Positions 26,907 to 33,452 of a DNA stretch of 64,000 bases are shown here, piece by piece. The notes under the pieces were generated by a model. That model did not search any database, had not been told where the DNA came from, and saw only the letters and a program-made list of their open reading frames with translations. Position 1 is the stretch's first letter; each line of letters starts with the position of its first letter. Made by a program: the position numbers and the translations under genes. The DNA is from Candidatus Bathyarchaeia archaeon (lineage in GTDB: Archaea; Thermoproteota; Bathyarchaeia; Bathyarchaeales; Bathycorpusculaceae), in NCBI GenBank assembly GCA_049512935.1, contig JBEKWR010000007.1:41815-105814 (forward strand), written 5' to 3'.

Positions 26907-28133
26907 TTAAGGCTTGTGAAGCGCCTGCGGAGAGTAGTTGATCAATTGGCTGAACCTTGCATCATCATTAAACACGTCTCTGATGAGGCTTCTTGAAATT
27001 TCAAGCCTGATCTTCTTGGTTCTGCCGTAGCGGCCCATGCTTACAACTTTCGCGTTGACGAGACCCATCGAATCAAGCTCATTAATCAACGTGCCTAACC
27101 GACGCTGCGTCAGAAGGCCAGCGCCAAACTCGCCGCAAAGCTCGTTGTAGATGTCGTATATTTCGCCTGTAGTTGCGTTTGGCTTGTTCAGGTGATAAAC
27201 GCTGAGAAGCACCAGTTTCGAGTGGAGAGTTAAGTTCTTGAGAGATTCAATCACGCGGTTATGTTCAATATGCTTTTCAGCTAAGCGCACATGCTCTTCT
27301 GTGACAAGCTTGGCGCCTTGCCGCTCCGCAACTTCTCCTGCGACCCGCAACAAGTCCAGAGCTCGCCGCGCGTCCCCATGCTCCGCAGCAGCCAAAGCTG
27401 AACAAACATTCAACGCTGATTCAGACAATACGCCCTCTCGGAAAGACAACTTTGAACGTTCAGACAGAATGTTCCTCAGTTCCGCGGCGTCGTAGGGTCT
27501 AAAAACAAGTTCCTCTTCGCTGAGCGAACTGAAAACTCGGGGATCTAAGAACTCTTTCAGTCGGAGATCGTTTGAGATACCGATTATAGACACTTTGCTC
27601 TTGCTTAGTGTTTCGTTTATCCGTGTCAACTCGTACATGAAGGCGTCCCCCTTATCTTTTATAAGTGCATCAATCTCGTCAAGAACAATGATGAAAATAA
27701 TTCGTGACGAGTCCAGGCCCGCTCTGAACCTGTCAAAAACTTCTCCAACGGATAAACCCGTAAACGGAATGTTCATGCCTACGCTTTGACTCAGGCTTGC
27801 AAAAACTCGGTATTCAGAACCTGTCATTCGGCAGTTTATGTAACAGAACTTTACCTTCGAGCCGTATTCTTTCGCTTTGAACTCCAGATGACTCAAAACA
27901 TACTTTGCTACTGCCGTTTTGCCGGTCCCCGTTTTTCCATAAATGAAAATGTTCGAGCATCTTGCGTCCCTGAGAACTGGAGCAACCGTTTCTCCGAGCA
28001 GTTTTATTTGTTCTTCCCTGTGCGGCAATCTTTCAGGAATGTAATCGTGCCTCAAAACTTCTCGGTCCTTGAACAATTTGACGCCGTTAACGAAACTCTC
28101 GAATACATCATCTAATACGTTTGAATTCCCCAT
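26907..28133 (-). CDS. cdc6: Orc1/Cdc6 replication initiator
   Basis: LPHREEQI, YGKTGTGKT, VLDEID, LDPRVFSSL, GDARRALDLLR, MGRYGRTK. Confidence 0.96.
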   Translation of the reverse strand: MGNSNVLDDVFESFVNGVKLFKDREVLRHDYIPERLPHREEQIKLLGETVAPVLRDARCSNIFIYGKTGTGKTAVAKYVLSHLEFKAKEYGSKVKFCYINCRMTGSEYRVFASLSQSVGMNIPFTGLSVGEVFDRFRAGLDSSRIIFIIVLDEIDALIKDKGDAFMYELTRINETLSKSKVSIIGISNDLRLKEFLDPRVFSSLSEEELVFRPYDAAELRNILSERSKLSFREGVLSESALNVCSALAAAEHGDARRALDLLRVAGEVAERQGAKLVTEEHVRLAEKHIEHNRVIESLKNLTLHSKLVLLSVYHLNKPNATTGEIYDIYNELCGEFGAGLLTQRRLGTLINELDSMGLVNAKVVSMGRYGRTKKIRLEISRSLIRDVFNDDARFSQLINYSPQALHKP

Positions 28134-28140
28134 TCCCTCA

Positions 28141-28181
28141 CGCCCTTATTTTCAGAGGCACAACCGTTATTTCGAGTGGAA
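28141..28181 (-). promoter_or_regulatory. Two mini-ORB-like sites in the cdc6 leader
   Basis: Minus strand TTCCACTCGAAATAACGG and TGCCTCTGAAAATAAGGGCG, 21 bp apart, downstream of TTATAA near 28213. Confidence 0.6.
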
Positions 28182-28280
28182 CAGATAAAGCATGTAGTAC
28201 AAAAAACTGGTCTTATAACACAACTATCCTAAAAATCAATGAAAGCCTGCTATGACAATCAGGCAAATGCAGAGGTACAC

Positions 28281-28303
28281 ACACCCCAAAGTTTCTACTG
28301 GAA
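28281..28303 (-). promoter_or_regulatory. ORB 1
   Basis: TTCCAGTAGAAACTTTGGGGTGT. Confidence 0.85.
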
Positions 28304-28468
28304 AAAGCTAACCAAGCAAAGGAAAAACAATTAATTAAAATATATTTTATATATACTCTGAGTTGTTAATGCGAAATTAATATATTAAGAACATTGATTC
28401 AAGATTTTAGATTAAATTTCTGCAAAAATTTTTTCAGAGATTTCTAAGCTTCTTTTCTGCCTGAAAGC

Positions 28469-28491
28469 TTCGAGAGGAAACGTAGGGGTGT
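28469..28491 (+). promoter_or_regulatory. ORB 2
   Basis: TTCGAGAGGAAACGTAGGGGTGT. Confidence 0.85.
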
Positions 28492-28494
28492 CTG

Positions 28495-28923
28495 TTCACC
28501 TTTTTTTCCATGGTAAATTCTTACATCAGGGTCTTTGATTTCGGCTTTGTCTATGTAAGCATTGCCGAAACTCAGCGAAAAATCTCTCAAGCAGCATTAT
28601 TGCTTCACAGGCCTCTTTTTCCGTTCACAAAACTGTGAATACATGTGAATTAGCATTGCATTTGTCGCTTAATCACCTCTATTTTCTTCGCAATTACCAG
28701 ATTTATGTCCTTTTACAGTGAACGGGGCACCCCTACGCTTCTACTGGAAAAGCAGAACTAAGCCGTAACTGCAATTTTTCAGCTGTTCCAATTTTGTGTG
28801 AAGTCGGTTATGTTGAACGGAAGGAAAACCCACCGCCTTTTCTTAAAATAAGCTCGTTACTGTGTTTTTACTTTTGCTGCTTTCACCGTAACAGCTATAA
28901 GTTGTGAAGTGTAAAGTTGTGAA
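28495..28923. repeat. Dispersed GTGAA/TTCAC pentamer array (10 copies)
   Basis: Hand-counted starts 28495, 28604, 28624, 28635, 28645, 28718, 28798, 28882, 28904, 28919. Confidence 0.7.
28727..28749 (-). promoter_or_regulatory. ORB 3
   Basis: TTCCAGTAGAAGCGTAGGGGTGC. Confidence 0.85.
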
Positions 28924-28945
28924 CCCCCTAAAGAGTGTGCACCTG

Positions 28946-29377
28946 ATGCCAGCTCGTAAGATGCGTGTGGAGCTGTTCGACAGCGAAGGAAACCGTTACA
29001 CAATTGCTTTTGAGGGACAAGTGACGCGGGACAAAGCCATAAAACTCTTGGACCTTGTGGAACTGCTGGGTGGTGTGCCAACTGAAGACTCAACTGCAAG
29101 ATCGGCGTCTGCTTTGCCTAACAGTGTTCTTTCACGTTTCGAAAAGGTGCAAGGGGTTATCCAGAAAAGTTTTCCGTTGATTTGGTTTTCTTCAAAGGAC
29201 ATTCAGTCAGTTTATGAGCAGGAACTTAAAGAGCCAGTTAGCCTGAGCACGGTTTCCACTTACCTGTCCAGGATGGCGAGCAAAGGCATGCTTCTCAGAA
29301 CGGGTGGGTCCGCCAACTTAAAGTACAAAACAGCTCCCAGCATTCCTCAGGCCAGCATAAAACAGCGCGTCAAGTAA
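28946..29377 (+). CDS. Origin-adjacent hypothetical protein with C-terminal winged HTH
   Basis: MPARKMRVELFDSEGNRYTIAFEG N-domain; FSSKDIQSVYEQELKEPVSLSTVSTYLSRMASKGMLLRTG wHTH pattern. Confidence 0.8.
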   Translation: MPARKMRVELFDSEGNRYTIAFEGQVTRDKAIKLLDLVELLGGVPTEDSTARSASALPNSVLSRFEKVQGVIQKSFPLIWFSSKDIQSVYEQELKEPVSLSTVSTYLSRMASKGMLLRTGGSANLKYKTAPSIPQASIKQRVK

Positions 29378-29395
29378 ACGTGAGCGCCGTGCACG

Positions 29396-30130
29396 TTAAG
29401 TTGGTTGAAGGCTTTCGGTTTTCTTCAAAAGTTTTTCCATTTCCGTTTTGATGCTGTACCTGAAGGGTATCTTTCCTGCTTCCCTTTCAACGTAGCCGCC
29501 TTCGTAGAGTTTCTTCATAAGCCTTGCAGTGTGTTCTCTGCTAAGGTGCACTTTCTCTTTGATTTCAGGAGCCGTCTTCGGGCCTTCCGAAGACAACATT
29601 TCCAGCACCTCGATTTCGGTGGTCGTCAACGCCGCCATCGCTTTGTCCCGCCTGATTGGCATCACGGGAATGATTGTTTCAGCCTTGACTTCTGGCGCCA
29701 CGGTGAGCTTTTGGATTTGCTCGTCGAAACCTGCGATTCTTGCCTTCACCGCCTCCTGGGCCGCTTCGACGTCCTTGACTTTTGCATCCAAAACAGTTAA
29801 GCCCGAAAGCACCCCCGCGCCGGTCTGCTTGACGCTCTGAGCAACTGCGCTGATCTGATCCTCCATCGGCGTTATCTTTTTTTCCAGTGCTTCTGACTTC
29901 TTGATGCTTTCATCAGTTTTTGCAAAATTACCCTCGACCTTAAATGCAACAAGATCCAGTTTTTCAGTTTCACGCTGAAGTTCTCTGTGGAAACTCCCAA
30001 CAATGTCTTCAACAAGATTCTTGGCTTTTTCGTATTCTTTTTGGGCTTTGCGAACCTGCGTATAGTATTCCACAGATGTCGTTACCGTTACTGCAGCCAG
30101 AACTGCCAAGATTACTAGTGCGAAATCAAT
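29396..30130 (-). CDS. Membrane-anchored coiled-coil protein with C-terminal wHTH (MarR-like)
   Basis: Frame is open upstream of TTG 30109, giving IDFALVILAVLAAVTVTTSVEYY; then about 120 aa of heptad-rich helix; then LTTTEIEVLEML..TAPEIKEKVHLSREHTARLMKKLYEGGYVER; start codon uncertain. Confidence 0.8.
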   Translation of the reverse strand: MDFALVILAVLAAVTVTTSVEYYTQVRKAQKEYEKAKNLVEDIVGSFHRELQRETEKLDLVAFKVEGNFAKTDESIKKSEALEKKITPMEDQISAVAQSVKQTGAGVLSGLTVLDAKVKDVEAAQEAVKARIAGFDEQIQKLTVAPEVKAETIIPVMPIRRDKAMAALTTTEIEVLEMLSSEGPKTAPEIKEKVHLSREHTARLMKKLYEGGYVEREAGKIPFRYSIKTEMEKLLKKTESLQPT

Positions 30131-30131
30131 C

Positions 30132-30419
30132 GTGATTTGCTACCCCTGTGACGAGTGCGTGATTTAATCGGTTGCATCACACATCACAGTTATGCATGGA
30201 CTTTTTAAGGGTTACGGTGATGTGCGCAGATGCCAACTATGATGTCACACATCACGCAATTTTACAGCTCTTCTCCAAGATAATTTGGGTCTTTCTGATC
30301 TCCTTAATTTAGGCTTATTTTGTTATTCATGGATAGAATATTGCCCTTTTAATCGTGCTTTTCTGTGCTCACATTTTTCAGCAAAATCTCTTTGAAAAAG
30401 CCGTGATTTGTGATGTCAC
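30132..30419. repeat. GTGAT/ATCAC array A (8 copies plus 3 GTGAC/GTCAC)
   Basis: Starts 30132, 30159, 30176, 30183, 30217, 30251, 30403, 30410; GTGAC/GTCAC at 30148, 30244, 30415. Confidence 0.8.
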
Positions 30420-30913
30420 AAAGCCTCTTCCGTGGGGTTGGATAGTCGTTTTAGGCTAGTTTCGAGCTCTTGCCGTATGATTTCTATGACTTTTAGATGG
30501 TCTTTTAGTTCATCTTCCTTGTCCGGCATGTCTTGGTGTGCCTCTGTGTATTCGTGCAATTTGTTGGCTATTTCGAGGTACGGGTCAAGAGTTGTGCTCT
30601 CAAACACTCCTAAATAGCCTAAAAGCAGCACCGTGTATATCGATTTTATGACGTTTTCCTTGGACTGTTTTAATGTCCTGTTAAACGATCCTCGGCTTAT
30701 TTTAGCCTTAGTTAGCCTTAAATTGGCTTTTTCATCGTACTTTAGCTGTTTGCCTGCAAAATTCTCGGCTAATATGTCTATTAACAGCGTTTCGAGTTGG
30801 GTTTTAGTTAATTGGCTGTTTTTGGCGAGTATTTTGACAATAGGGTCATTTAAAGCCCCGTTTAGCCACGCTTGTACGCCGTCTTTTAGCTTCAACCTTC
30901 TTCTTCCCCTCAT
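30416..30913 (-). CDS. Hypothetical protein with HTH-like core
   Basis: SQLTKTQLETLLI..YDEKANLRLTKAKISRGSFNRTLKQSKENV. Confidence 0.75.
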   Translation of the reverse strand: MRGRRRLKLKDGVQAWLNGALNDPIVKILAKNSQLTKTQLETLLIDILAENFAGKQLKYDEKANLRLTKAKISRGSFNRTLKQSKENVIKSIYTVLLLGYLGVFESTTLDPYLEIANKLHEYTEAHQDMPDKEDELKDHLKVIEIIRQELETSLKRLSNPTEEAL

Positions 30914-31274
30914 CGTCTCAATGAATACAGTTTTGTATACTGGCTCATGTTTTTAAAGCTTGTTGATGTAAAAACTTCCTTTTTGCTCGCTCTTAGCGGC
31001 TGTAAATGCAGTCTAAAACCGTAAAAGACCGCCCATTGCTGAGCATTTTAATTAATCGGCATCACAACGCTAGTATTGACAAATTGGCGGCAAGGTTAAC
31101 GGTATTCAAAAGGAGCATTGTGCTTGATTTTAAACGGTAATTACATTTTAAAAAGTGGGTGGGGTCCTCGTATTCTTTCTGATTATAGGTTACGTCGTCT
31201 GTTTCAGTTCTTACTCGCCGTAATGTGCGCTTTAATCAGGTTTTTTTGGGTTGCTGCATTCAGAAGGAGAAGGC

Positions 31275-31366
31275 GTGACGTCACCAATCACGGTAAAATC
31301 ACTGTGATTTGTGGCTTAAGCAGAGTAATATCACGCTGTGTGATTACTTTGTGATGCCCCTGTGAT
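31275..31366. repeat. GTGAT/ATCAC array B (7 copies plus palindrome GTGACGTCAC), 11-bp phasing
   Basis: Starts 31287, 31298, 31304, 31330, 31340, 31351, 31362; GTGACGTCAC at 31275-31284. Confidence 0.82.
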
Positions 31367-31390
31367 TTTGCTGCTTGTCTGTAAGACTCT

Positions 31391-32236
31391 TTAGATACGC
31401 TCTGAGTACTCCTTTAGCTGGTCAAACAGCTCGGGCCTTAGGTCCCGCAGGGTTGGAATAAAAGTTTCTGCACTTCTCAGGTCGCCAAAGTCGACTTCGC
31501 ACGTGACGAAATCCTCTACGTCGTACTTTGCCTTGGCTAAAACGTCGCCGTTAGGGCTTACAAGCCTGCTTCCTCCCCAGAACTGCAAGCCGTCTTGGAC
31601 GCCTGCCAGGTTCACGTAGGCTAAGAAGGCAGTGTTTTCTATTGCTCTTGCGCATGTCAATGTTTCAAAATAGCTTCTCCTAACCGCTGGAGACGCCGAT
31701 ATGCAAACGATTAGTTGCGCACCCTTCAATCGGGTAAGCCTGAGAACTTCTGGGAAGAAGATGTCGTAGCAAATACATAAGCCAATGTTGCCCACCTCGG
31801 TTTGAAACGCTTGCGCCTCGTAGCCTGGACGGAAATACCTTTTCTCCTCAAAGATGCTGTGGGTCGGCAGGTACATTTTGCGGTATTTACCGATGAAACC
31901 TTTCGGTCCGACAAAGACGGCGGAGTTAAACATTGTTGCCTTGGTTTTCTCGCTTAACTCAGGCATGCCGAAAATGATATGCATACCCGTCTCCTTCGCC
32001 AGCGCCTCCACCTTTTCAACTGTCGGTCCAGGTATTGTTTCAGCCGACTCGTAGAATTGATCTCTTACCACGTAGCCGCTCAGGCAAAGCTCGGGAAAAA
32101 TAACTATGTCCGCCCCTTGCTCTTTGGCCTTGCAGGTTAATTTTTTTATTTTCTGCAGGTTAGCCTCTTTGTCTTCACGTTTGCTGCTCATCTGGGCGAG
32201 AGCCAGTTTGATTTTGTCTTTCATAGCTTTTCCCAC
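31391..32236 (-). CDS. Carbon-nitrogen hydrolase (nitrilase family)
   Basis: FPEL, YRKMYLP, ICYDIFFPE (Glu-Lys-Cys triad). Confidence 0.92.
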   Translation of the reverse strand: MGKAMKDKIKLALAQMSSKREDKEANLQKIKKLTCKAKEQGADIVIFPELCLSGYVVRDQFYESAETIPGPTVEKVEALAKETGMHIIFGMPELSEKTKATMFNSAVFVGPKGFIGKYRKMYLPTHSIFEEKRYFRPGYEAQAFQTEVGNIGLCICYDIFFPEVLRLTRLKGAQLIVCISASPAVRRSYFETLTCARAIENTAFLAYVNLAGVQDGLQFWGGSRLVSPNGDVLAKAKYDVEDFVTCEVDFGDLRSAETFIPTLRDLRPELFDQLKEYSERI

Positions 32237-33182: not shown

Positions 33183-33452
33183 TTGGGTCGAAGAAGAAAG
33201 AAAGTAGTTCATATTCCAAAGAAACGTTTACCCAAATTCTTCTCTTGCCCAAGATGCGGGAAAGAAACCGTTAAAGTTGAAATTTCCAGAGAGGAAGGCG
33301 GCCACGCCGTCGCGCAATGCAGCAGTTGCGGTCTTAAGGAGGAGTTCCCTGTTAAGCCAGCTCAGGGTGAAGTTGACGTTTACTGCATGTTAACCGATCG
33401 AGTTTACGGTTCCGGCAGAAGGGCGCCGTTACCAAGCGTAAAGAAAGAATAA
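33183..33452 (+). CDS. elf1: Transcription elongation factor Elf1
   Basis: MGRRRKK..LPKFFSCPRC..CSSCG..VDVYC. Confidence 0.85.
   Translation: MGRRRKKVVHIPKKRLPKFFSCPRCGKETVKVEISREEGGHAVAQCSSCGLKEEFPVKPAQGEVDVYCMLTDRVYGSGRRAPLPSVKKE

Follow-up and report, generated by a model that had tools for sequence, protein, structure and literature searches.

Box arrays at a single locus beside a predicted replication origin of Bathyarchaeia: a candidate module for attaching origin-proximal DNA to the membrane

In a 64,000-nucleotide stretch of DNA from a Candidatus Bathyarchaeia archaeon (contig JBEKWR010000007.1; referred to below as the window), three uncharacterised genes, here termed g1, g2 and g3, lie directly beside a predicted replication origin (oriC), together with dense arrays of short DNA boxes. 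The boxes belong to two separate motifs, i.e., GTGAA and GTGAT/C (GTGAY), and with a third element, the palindrome ATACA-N4-TGTAT, they are confined to about 3.3 kb beside oriC, forming a single-locus element rather than a regulon. We tentatively favor a reading in which the three proteins and these sites would form a self-contained, autoregulated nucleoprotein complex attaching origin-proximal DNA to the membrane, which we regard as a strong possibility, if short of probable. An earlier interpretation of the same DNA, made from its letters alone (the sequence-only reading), had proposed an ATPase-free, centromere-like system at the origin. That interpretation is partly supported, and the box enrichment that it reported is real and much stronger than chance. 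The three open reading frames (ORFs) that it had placed beside oriC were confirmed, and carry predicted helix-turn-helix (HTH) or winged HTH (wHTH) segments of differing strength:

28946..29377, plus strand: g1, 143 aa, with an N-terminal strand/helix domain and a C-terminal wHTH-like domain
29396..30136, minus strand: g2, with a predicted N-terminal transmembrane helix, a coiled coil and a C-terminal MarR/TrmB/Lrs14-type wHTH (mechanically called start at 30109)
30416..30913, minus strand: g3, 165 aa, a helical family with an HTH-like N-domain (residues 1-100) and a C-terminal antiparallel helical hairpin (103-165)

Two box motifs are confined to one locus

Positions 28495-31366 contain 13 GTGAA and 18 GTGAT boxes, i.e., 31 in all, close to the 30 or so copies of GTGAN counted previously by hand. 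They had been taken as one GTGA(A/T) motif packing the origin-side gap and the two larger spacers. The enrichment stood, but the single motif did not, and part of the supposed gap is oriC itself, since the third origin recognition box (ORB)-like repeat lies at 28728-28763. Ten GTGAA boxes were present in the 451-bp origin-side gap, where 1.1 would be expected (Poisson 2e-7), and none in the g2-g3 spacer or in the spacer upstream of g3, whereas GTGAT occurred eight times in the g2-g3 spacer (0.4 expected), eight times upstream of g3 (0.6 expected) and once in the origin gap. Within the coding regions of g1, g2 and g3 box frequency was at background.

The sequence-only reading depended on arrays that are conserved and denser than elsewhere in the genome, and on genes linked to cdc6 and its ORBs, and each of these expectations was borne out. 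In the whole 2.296-Mb assembly, only three 150-bp intervals contained at least four GTGAT boxes, and the top two (with seven and six) are the arrays of this locus. Similarly, the origin gap is the densest 450-bp GTGAA interval of the genome (10 boxes; runner-up 7). A 17-bp composite, GTGAY-NN-GTGAY-RTCAY, i.e., a dyad with a third half-site 7 bp off, had three genome matches, at 30239, 30403 and 31275. In the single-contig relatives G003, G014 and G052, all matches to the composite (3/3, 2/2 and 2/2) lay between g2 and g3 or next to one of them; reversing the pattern as a control gave no match in any of the three. The ATACA-N4-TGTAT palindrome had a single match in the whole genome, at the predicted g3 promoter.

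The GTGAY sites, about 20 in number, all fall within about 1.2 kb, at 1.4-2.6 kb from the nearest ORB. Box spacing was both 7 bp and about 11 bp, and some boxes form a dyad with a third half-site. The elements of the locus, for which promoter roles and TATA boxes are predictions, are as follows:

28624..28649: GTGAA triple box, TTCAC-N6-GTGAA-N5-GTGAA, between ORB-like repeats 2 and 3; 70-100% conserved over 48 loci, in spacer conserved at 0-40%
28796..28810, plus strand: conserved GTGTGAAG box, doubled to GTGAAgtcNGTGAA in other families
28880..28924, plus strand: predicted g1 promoter, with TTCAC, TATA-like GCTATAAG (28894-28901), GTGAA, N10 and GTGAA; every column 90-100% conserved
30132..30256: P2 array, with three direct GTGAY boxes at the g2 start, ATCACacATCAC (30176-30187), GTGAT (30217) and the composite ATGATGTCACACATCAC (30239-30255); 90-100% conserved over 79 loci
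30201..30211, minus strand: predicted g2 TATA box (CCCTTAAAAAG on the g2 strand), with boxes on either side; a conserved island, also across the order
30302..30322: conserved A/T-rich element in the g2-g3 spacer; 70-90% conserved
30403..30419, plus strand: T element GTGATTTGTGATGTCAC, a palindrome with the g3 stop codon inside it; 19 of 21 order-level loci have a palindrome at this stop
30919..30958, minus strand: predicted g3 promoter, with TATA-like CTTTAAAAAC (30949-30958) and, between it and the ATG, the palindrome ATACAGTTTTGTAT (30925-30938); conserved
31128..31153: AT palindrome (TTTTAAACGGTAATTAC / GTAATTACATTTTAAAA; inverted repeat I12), located between g3 and the upstream array, its two arms reading TTTAAAA; partly conserved
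31275..31355: U array, with the composite GTGACGTCACCAATCAC (31275-31291), ATCAC-N-GTGAT, ATCAC..GTGAT and GTGAT; 20 of 21 loci have four or more boxes per 150 bp in this upstream region

The arrangement of the g1 promoter, whose TATA box was assigned by inspection, is present across the order. The U array lies 0.36-0.65 kb upstream of g3.

The boxes are conserved islands in fast-changing spacers

Column conservation was determined over 79 related loci for the g2/g3 side and 48 loci for the origin/g1 side. At this base level, the boxes, all three TATA-like boxes and the g3 palindrome form islands that are 90-100% conserved, while the surrounding spacers are conserved at 0-40%. On the origin side, the islands include the GTGAA boxes at 28624-28649, 28718, 28798 and 28882-28923; the boxes at 28496, 28605 and 31362 were not conserved in the relatives in these alignments. 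Because they form such islands, and because they persist over 12 families at 30-60% protein identity, the boxes appear to behave as functional sites.

Within the order, the GTGAYRTCAC dyad was present in the g2-g3 spacer of 20 of 21 sequences, and the spacers contained from 3 to 16 GTGAY boxes (11 in the window, and 8-16 in 17 of 21). The g3 palindrome was found by a strict regular expression within 80 nt of the mechanically called start at 14 of 21 loci and by eye at 20 of 21 (the exception being L055); several of the misses reflect ORFs that had been called with a start too far upstream.

The position of the GTGAY arrays varies in distant lineages, where they may precede the operon, lie within it or follow it. 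In the genus of the window, the upstream array occupies non-coding DNA. At eight loci of other families (L047, L048, L051-L053 and L058-L060), the same arrangement (dyad, NN, RTCAC, N6, RTCAC, N1-2, GTGAT) lies inside a divergent aminotransferase gene, where it encodes a peptide of the approximate form V-x-S-L-I-T-E-K-S-R-V-I. In the seven full-length genes (L047 being left out because a contig end cuts its gene), the array codons were GTG for valine in 7/7 and TCA for the second serine in 7/7, against gene-wide shares of 0.33 and 0.26. This suggests a coding region that doubles as a protein-binding array, although the codon bias is suggestive rather than a test, because the genomes carrying the embedded array are related. 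The only aminotransferase relatives in the genome of the window are paralogues (about 34% identity) that lack the array motif. A search for a decayed aminotransferase around the upstream array of the window gave chance-level matches of 5-30 residues, the one recurrent match being the array-encoded peptide itself.

A different arrangement was seen at L151 (2500-6030, genome G233), where about 3.3 kb without long ORFs separates a HypF-like gene from g3. This stretch contains decayed duplicates of the 3' end of hypF, each terminating in a GTGATGTCAC dyad. The hypF stop codon of L151 lies inside the dyad, like the stop codon of g3.

A predicted membrane-anchored winged-helix protein and two smaller proteins

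HTH segments had been claimed for all three proteins. For g2 this was supported above Pfam gathering scores, for g1 by sub-threshold matches, and for g3, which has no Pfam match, by a helical model and weak leads.

Residues 161-219 of g2 scored 31.9 bits with MarR (gathering score 24.6), 31.5 with TrmB (25.6) and 27.5 with HTH_27 (22.2), which places this predicted domain, although not the protein as a whole, whose architecture differs, among the MarR/TrmB-type winged helices. Its recognition helix, SREHTARLMKKLY, is nearly invariant throughout the phylum. The domain follows a predicted coiled coil of about 120 residues and, at the N terminus, a hydrophobic helix succeeded by basic residues; 17 of the 21 homologues have a 19-residue segment with a mean Kyte-Doolittle value of at least 1.87. 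The helix is preceded by only a few residues, and no sensor domain was found in g2. The combination of membrane anchor, coiled coil and wHTH noted previously therefore held as an architecture, with the amendment that the helix lies partly upstream of the first canonical start, where an in-frame extension, ITIDFALVIL, completes it (window 30110-30139, QITIDFALVIL...). Three close relatives share a helix extending upstream of the first ATG, GTG or TTG, and their conserved upstream codons begin at ATC-ACG within a GTGAT box. This suggests that g2 uses a non-canonical start codon.

The start of g1, MPARK, was conserved in 21/21 aligned homologues. Its C-terminal domain matched Penicillinase_R in Pfam (E 0.006) and PDB entry 2k4b in a profile search (E 0.033), both below threshold; the N-domain is conserved, and predicted from sequence to be strand-strand-helix. 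There was no match for g1 in NCBIfam.

No match was found for g3 in Pfam at E<=1, in NCBIfam, or in profile searches of the PDB. Among the best 120 of 3021 homologues all were nameless or called 'hypothetical protein', and a set of 1.84 billion proteins contained 321 representative clusters of them at E<=0.001; g3 is a new protein family. A model from a 100-sequence alignment was all-helical with a predicted local distance difference test (pLDDT) of 92.9, and replaced one from 21 sequences (pLDDT 62.8). A Foldseek search of the PDB with the model gave nothing at E<=0.001, the weak leads being sigma-70 region 4 (3vep_D, E 3.7) and TFIIB (5fyw_M, E 0.43). Sigma region 4 was also a weak Atlas lead (score 0.78, family on 14% of members). 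The VIA wide search matched the C-terminal hairpin alone (Z<=8.1), and such hairpins are a common arrangement. An HTH in g3 is thus a weak assignment, drawn from the confident all-helical model and these leads.

The boxes stand in and beside a predicted origin

The gene order near 28 kb is PolD small subunit, Orc1/Cdc6 (minus strand), a gap of 812 bp, g1 (plus), g2 (minus), g3 (minus) and a carbon-nitrogen hydrolase. The initiator gene and the gap contain the following:

26907..28133, minus strand: Orc1/Cdc6 initiator gene (Pfam Cdc6_lid 4e-25, Cdc6_C 6e-24, AAA)
28148..28210: conserved block beside the cdc6 start, with a mini-ORB-like TTTCGAGTGGAAC, which we take to be ORB-like by inspection, and the likely cdc6 promoter; 80-100% conserved in 48 loci and the window
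28282..28317, plus strand: ORB-like repeat 1 (CACCCC..TTTCTACTGGAAAA), of direct repeat family D1; conserved
28318..28445: AT-rich putative unwinding element, with a GC content of 18.8% against 48.5% in the window
28469..28490, minus strand: ORB-like repeat 2, inverted, forming inverted repeat I3 with ORB-like repeat 3 (82% complementary); conserved
28714..28763, plus strand: GTGAAC box, then ORB-like repeat 3 (28728-28763); conserved

There are thus three ORB-like repeats in the gap, two direct and one inverted, with the 128-bp AT-rich tract between the first and the second. An initiator gene with an AT-rich tract and ORB repeats is the anatomy described as usual for archaeal origins (PMC4010727). 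With Cdc6 domains, three conserved ORB-like repeats and the tract, the gap has the features of an Orc1/Cdc6-ORB origin, and we refer to it as a predicted origin. A second, distant Orc1/Cdc6 paralogue (33% identity) is encoded on another contig of the same genome (C2:179897-180871). A scan of 28000-31500 against Rfam (E<=1) returned only a chance-level mir-11 row.

The placement of the GTGAA boxes bears on an account in which the locus would control initiation, i.e., in which g1, and possibly g2 and g3, would bind in or beside oriC to license, time or block Orc1/Cdc6. This might occur by competition for ORBs, altered unwinding, or titration or sequestration after firing, with datA, SeqA, CtrA and Spo0A of bacteria and the downstream ORB cluster at Haloarcula oriC2 as analogues. 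GTGAA boxes do lie between ORB-like repeats 2 and 3 and beside repeat 3, a placement conserved across the order. In the Orc1-g1 spacers of the amoA-positive loci L144, L157 and L158, iterated GTTAAC boxes stand at matching places between or beside ORB-like repeats, taking the place that GTGAA boxes have in Bathyarchaeia. Of g1-g3, g1 has the widest distribution (198 of 301 genomes in the phylum), and in genomes without g2 and g3 (G114, G122, G069 and G100) it still lies across the origin from Orc1/Cdc6, in divergent orientation. Regulatory repeats and titration have, moreover, been described at archaeal origins (PMC4010727). However, the GTGAY arrays, at their distance from the nearest ORB, are outside the origin proper, nothing ties g1-g3 physically to Orc1/Cdc6, and the membrane anchor would be left unexplained. 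In addition, two of three relatives that lack all three genes keep an Orc1/Cdc6 orthologue. Control of initiation therefore appears improbable as the whole account of the locus.

The cassette is widespread, although not as an obligatory unit

Relatives were sought in 61 genomes from 12 families of one order and, by profile searches (g2 at E<=1e-8), in 301 genomes across the phylum, Thermoproteota. Within the order, g3 was present in 56/61, g2 in 54/61 and g1 in 55/61 genomes. The order PolD-small, Orc1/Cdc6, oriC, g1, g2, g3 held in 20/20 order-level loci; Orc1/Cdc6 was on the same stretch in 18 of them, the other two being cut by contig ends. Across the phylum, g2 was found in 162 and g3 in 144 of the 301 genomes, and the linkage extended beyond the order: among 20 distant loci, the full PolD-small, Orc1, g1, g2, g3 cassette was present in three amoA-bearing genomes and in three further families. 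Distances between g3 and Orc1/Cdc6 were taken from genomes with both genes listed on one contig, those with the genes on different contigs or in unlisted rows being left out. On this basis g3 lay less than 10 kb from the Orc1/Cdc6 orthologue in 7/7 class-level genomes (other families of Bathyarchaeia) and in 11 genomes of other classes.

In one family (L165, L166), g1 and g2 lie about 190 kb from the Orc1/Cdc6 orthologue. By inspection, ORB-like repeats (TTCCAGTAGAAA, ..GGGGTG) and an AT-rich tract are present upstream of g1 at both loci, which may represent an origin without an adjacent initiator gene.

An ATPase of the ParA/SegA type had been reported missing from the cassette, and this was upheld: PF13614 gave six matches in the genome, all on other contigs and none on that of the window (C7). 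The broader label 'ATPase-free' fits this genome, but not about half of its relatives. Nine of 20 order-level relatives carry an insert of 2.4-3.3 kb between g1 and g2, and in the two loci examined (L041:2979-5514 and L057:3018-5595) it encodes two proteins on the g1 strand. One, of about 340 aa, is NurA-like (a weak match, E 9e-4), and the other, of about 520 aa, is a HerA-like ATPase, matching the HerA central domain at E 1e-12 to 5e-8 and generic PADLOC HerA models at E 3.5e-11. No match to the HerA-like ATPase was found in the genome of the window, which is 93% complete, an empty result that shows little.

Such an insert is one of two features favoring a remnant of an integrated plasmid or virus, i.e., a partition or maintenance cassette, or a defence island near the origin, the HerA-like and NurA-like pair being variable among relatives. 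The other is that promoter-overlapping iterated boxes resemble the WATCACW heptads of pSM19035 parS (PMC9499535). The cassette is, however, single copy and vertically conserved in 12 families, with core genes on both sides (PolD, Orc1, NAD synthase and GGGP synthase). The GC content of its coding regions is near the 48.5% of the window, dips to 39% and 41% being confined to the AT-rich origin and spacer kilobases. A tRNA scan found no tRNA near the cassette, and no integrase lies nearby. PADLOC gave no match for g1 or g3; g2 matched Csa3/CasR-type wHTH models and JetC coiled-coil models, but only weakly (E 8e-6 to 8e-3). On the neighboring genes, the tRNA scan and PADLOC we rejected this explanation, which is very improbable.

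Of the other features in this neighborhood, g1 and g2 are convergent, their stop codons lying 18 bp apart (29378-29395) in a gap with an ACGTG...CACGT inverted repeat. At 33183-33452, a small zinc-ribbon ORF (MGRRRKKVVHIPKKRLPK..CPRCG..), presumably Elf1-like, adjoins a GGGP-synthase-like gene, and this pair is also found upstream of g3 in some relatives (L050, L055 and L056). Sequencing runs containing DNA of the window were labeled peat or wetland metagenomes.

Each motif keeps company with a different gene

Loci that lack one of the genes allowed the motifs to be assigned to likely partners. At nine loci without g2, from five families (L142, L146, L150, L152 and L169-L173), there was no GTGAY array beside g3 or g1 and no GTGAYRTCAC dyad; eight of them had at most 1-3 GTGAY boxes per 150 bp anywhere, and L171 reached four, about 2 kb away. 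In G126, G315, G154, G184 and G096, no g2 was found anywhere in the genome; for L169-L171 and L173 its absence refers to the locus. Conversely, 15 distant loci with g2 had a maximum of 2-7 boxes (median 5), and the dyad was present in nine. Where g2 was present without g3 (n = 7), the densest GTGAY cluster lay directly upstream of g2 in five. The ATACA-N4-TGTAT palindrome was kept with g3 in lineages without g2, and GTGAA boxes were kept beside g1 and oriC where g2 or g3 was absent. From this co-occurrence across loci we infer that g2 pairs with the GTGAY arrays, g1 with GTGAA, and g3 with the palindrome. A single GTGAN-binding protein serving all of the arrays was rejected, GTGAA and GTGAY being cleanly partitioned and having different phyletic partners.

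Comparison with known systems

Origin-proximal arrays whose binding protein is linked to the envelope are known from RacA-ram-DivIVA of Bacillus subtilis, ParB/parS with polar anchors, and Noc. RacA, ParB and Noc reach the membrane via partners or an amphipathic helix, and their sites are spread over tens to hundreds of kilobases; RacA has a MerR-type HTH with a coiled coil, DivIVA as partner, and dispersed ram sites. Here, by contrast, the candidate binding protein would itself contain an integral helix, and its sites lie within about 1.2 kb. No Pfam match to ParB/Srx (ParBc) or MerR was found in g1-g3 at E<=1, the ParB of ParABS systems having a ParB/Srx N-domain and an HTH.

The closest formal likeness was to the omega/parS system of pSM19035, which also has iterated boxes with an ATCAC core, direct and inverted, partly in a 7-bp register, over its own promoters. 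There, the parS arrays are operator and centromere at once, and consist of 7-10 contiguous heptads bound by a ribbon-helix-helix (RHH) protein, omega (ParB), that activates a ParA ATPase (PMC9499535). The present locus, on the other hand, has 2-3 contiguous boxes plus others about 11 bp apart, a head-to-head GTGAYRTCAC dyad, and as candidate binding protein a wHTH with a membrane anchor; it is chromosomal and archaeal, with no ParA on the contig. No RHH match was found in g1-g3 in Pfam, and we regard the resemblance as one of form, not homology.

SegAB of Sulfolobus is a candidate archaeal segregation system with a site-specific DNA-binding protein (PMC7617429). SegA is a ParA-type ATPase encoded with SegB, and there is none in this cassette or contig; the ATPase in the cassettes of L041 and L057 is of HerA type. 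The oapABC (arvABC) genes are likewise a three-gene cluster, on the far side of the main origin and divergent from orc1 (PMC7921747). OapA is a small GTPase, OapB a DUF2073 protein and OapC a DUF2072 zinc ribbon (PMC10927574); unlike these, g1-g3 match none of the Oap families in Pfam, and are accompanied by site arrays.

The C-terminal domain of g2 matches archaeal wHTH proteins such as MarR, TrmB, Lrs14, Sta1 and Sso10a. Those are soluble regulators or chromatin proteins, to which g2 would add a transmembrane helix, the coiled coil and candidate sites at one locus. ToxR and CadC are single-pass membrane regulators with an N-terminal cytoplasmic DNA-binding domain, a periplasmic sensor domain and regulons, whereas the predicted anchor of g2 is N-terminal and has no external domain. 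A site cluster near an origin with a proposed control role is also a feature of datA in E. coli and of the downstream ORB cluster at Haloarcula oriC2 (PMC4010727). Those clusters bind the initiator itself, while the present boxes differ from ORBs and co-occur with g1 and g2.

Discussion

If the locus is a membrane-attached complex, g2 would be inserted via one N-terminal helix with almost no external part, its coiled coil and wHTH lying in the cytoplasm, and as an oligomer it would occupy the GTGAY boxes, some 20 in all. These form three clusters: one over the promoter and 5' end of g2 itself, one at the stop codon of g3, and the U array. Because the boxes cover the predicted TATA and start region of g2 and enclose g3, both genes would be autoregulated upon binding. 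A membrane-inserted protein occupying some 20 sites would also imply that the DNA carrying them, 2-3 kb from the origin, must be physically held at the membrane. For its part, g1 would bind the GTGAA boxes between and beside the ORBs and flanking its own TATA box and, given their placement among the ORBs, could modulate Orc1 loading or report the state of the origin, while g3 would repress itself via its palindrome. The most specific version of this proposal is that an integral-membrane wHTH protein on a genome-unique array 2-3 kb from oriC attaches the origin region to the membrane without an ATPase, a second protein between the ORBs coupling this to initiation; in that form we consider it rather unlikely.

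The main competing explanation is a purely transcriptional circuit, in which g1-g3 would be auto- and cross-regulating factors and the arrays cooperative or looping operators. The anchor of g2 would then serve signal-dependent sequestration and release, and the proximity to the origin would reflect inherited synteny or gene dosage on early replication. Autorepression of g2 is indeed likely, because boxes stand on both sides of its TATA-like box and continue over the expected transcription start region as far as the start codon. More generally, boxes flank or cover the predicted TATA or start regions of all three genes. The sequence-only reading had counted proteins acting only as autorepressors against its proposal. 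With boxes lying over the predicted TATA boxes and transcription start regions of g1 and g2, autoregulation probably makes up at least some of the function. A circuit is also consistent with the MarR/TrmB/Lrs14-type domain of g2, which is typical of archaeal regulators, with the cluster found immediately 5' of g2 in families that have g2 without g3, with the varying combinations in which the genes are found, and with the caution that oapABC provides against deducing function from origin adjacency (PMC7921747, PMC10927574).

On the other side, no candidate target sites outside the locus were found in four genomes, so that, unless g3 acts otherwise, the circuit would lack a visible output. The element at the g3 stop codon and the upstream array, which tolerates a position inside another gene, are not promoter-proximal and, judged by position, are not promoter elements. 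Some 20 sites are far above the needs of autorepression, and both the number and the placement of sites appear to exceed those of a simple operator. Finally, g2 lacks a sensor domain, and proximity to the origin is kept across classes. We regard a purely transcriptional circuit as plausible, but on the whole doubtful. With all three motifs at one locus and a self-targeting regulator without output, we favor the membrane-attached complex.

Several observations nevertheless weigh against attachment. The protein-motif pairs draw on co-occurrence among related, non-independent genomes in small numbers (five families without g2), and in two of the seven loci with g2 but not g3 the densest GTGAY cluster lies away from g2. 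Boxes over predicted promoters would be expected equally from plain autorepression. There are 13 genomes with g3 at 11-32 kb from Orc1/Cdc6 and two with it at more than 35 kb, and in some lineages the genes lie 11-150 kb from Orc1/Cdc6. The distributions of the genes are partly independent (g1 and g2 without g3, as in one family; g1 alone beside Orc1, another family having g1 alone; g1 and g3 without g2; and g2 and g3 without g1), and therefore the module is not obligatory as a unit. The order-level genomes G045, G046 and G047 (97, 98 and 92% complete) lack g1, g2 and g3 together; G045 and G047 are those that retain an Orc1/Cdc6 orthologue, and G046 has no close match to the origin-adjacent Orc1/Cdc6. 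GC skew across the window had no clear switch at 28 kb and is uninformative, so that the origin call draws solely on Orc1, the ORB-like repeats and the AT-rich tract. Lastly, haloarchaeal oapABC has conserved origin adjacency, yet acts in vesicle formation (PMC10927574).

In agreement with the sequence-only reading, which knew of no earlier account, no description of g1-g3 or of the arrays was found in the open-access library searched. For archaeal segregation, the relevant passages of a 2024 review of the cell cycle name only SegAB and ParA/ParB homologues (PMC7617429). The mechanism of chromosome positioning and segregation is obscure in most archaea, and the locus is a concrete, testable candidate. 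Its three protein families are uncharacterised, its cis elements are delimited with base-pair precision, and it has one target on the chromosome; orthologues occur in amoA-bearing archaea, which have some cultivable relatives. Even if its role is only regulatory, the boxes form a second conserved class besides ORBs in the origin regions of Bathyarchaeia and their relatives, a DNA array appears to have been maintained by selection inside a protein-coding gene, and the g3 family is still new. If attachment is correct, the locus would be a physical version of the origin-membrane attachment of the 1963 replicon model, with conservation reaching from Bathyarchaeia as far as ammonia-oxidising archaea. 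These lineages would thereby gain their first known device for origin positioning or for segregation.

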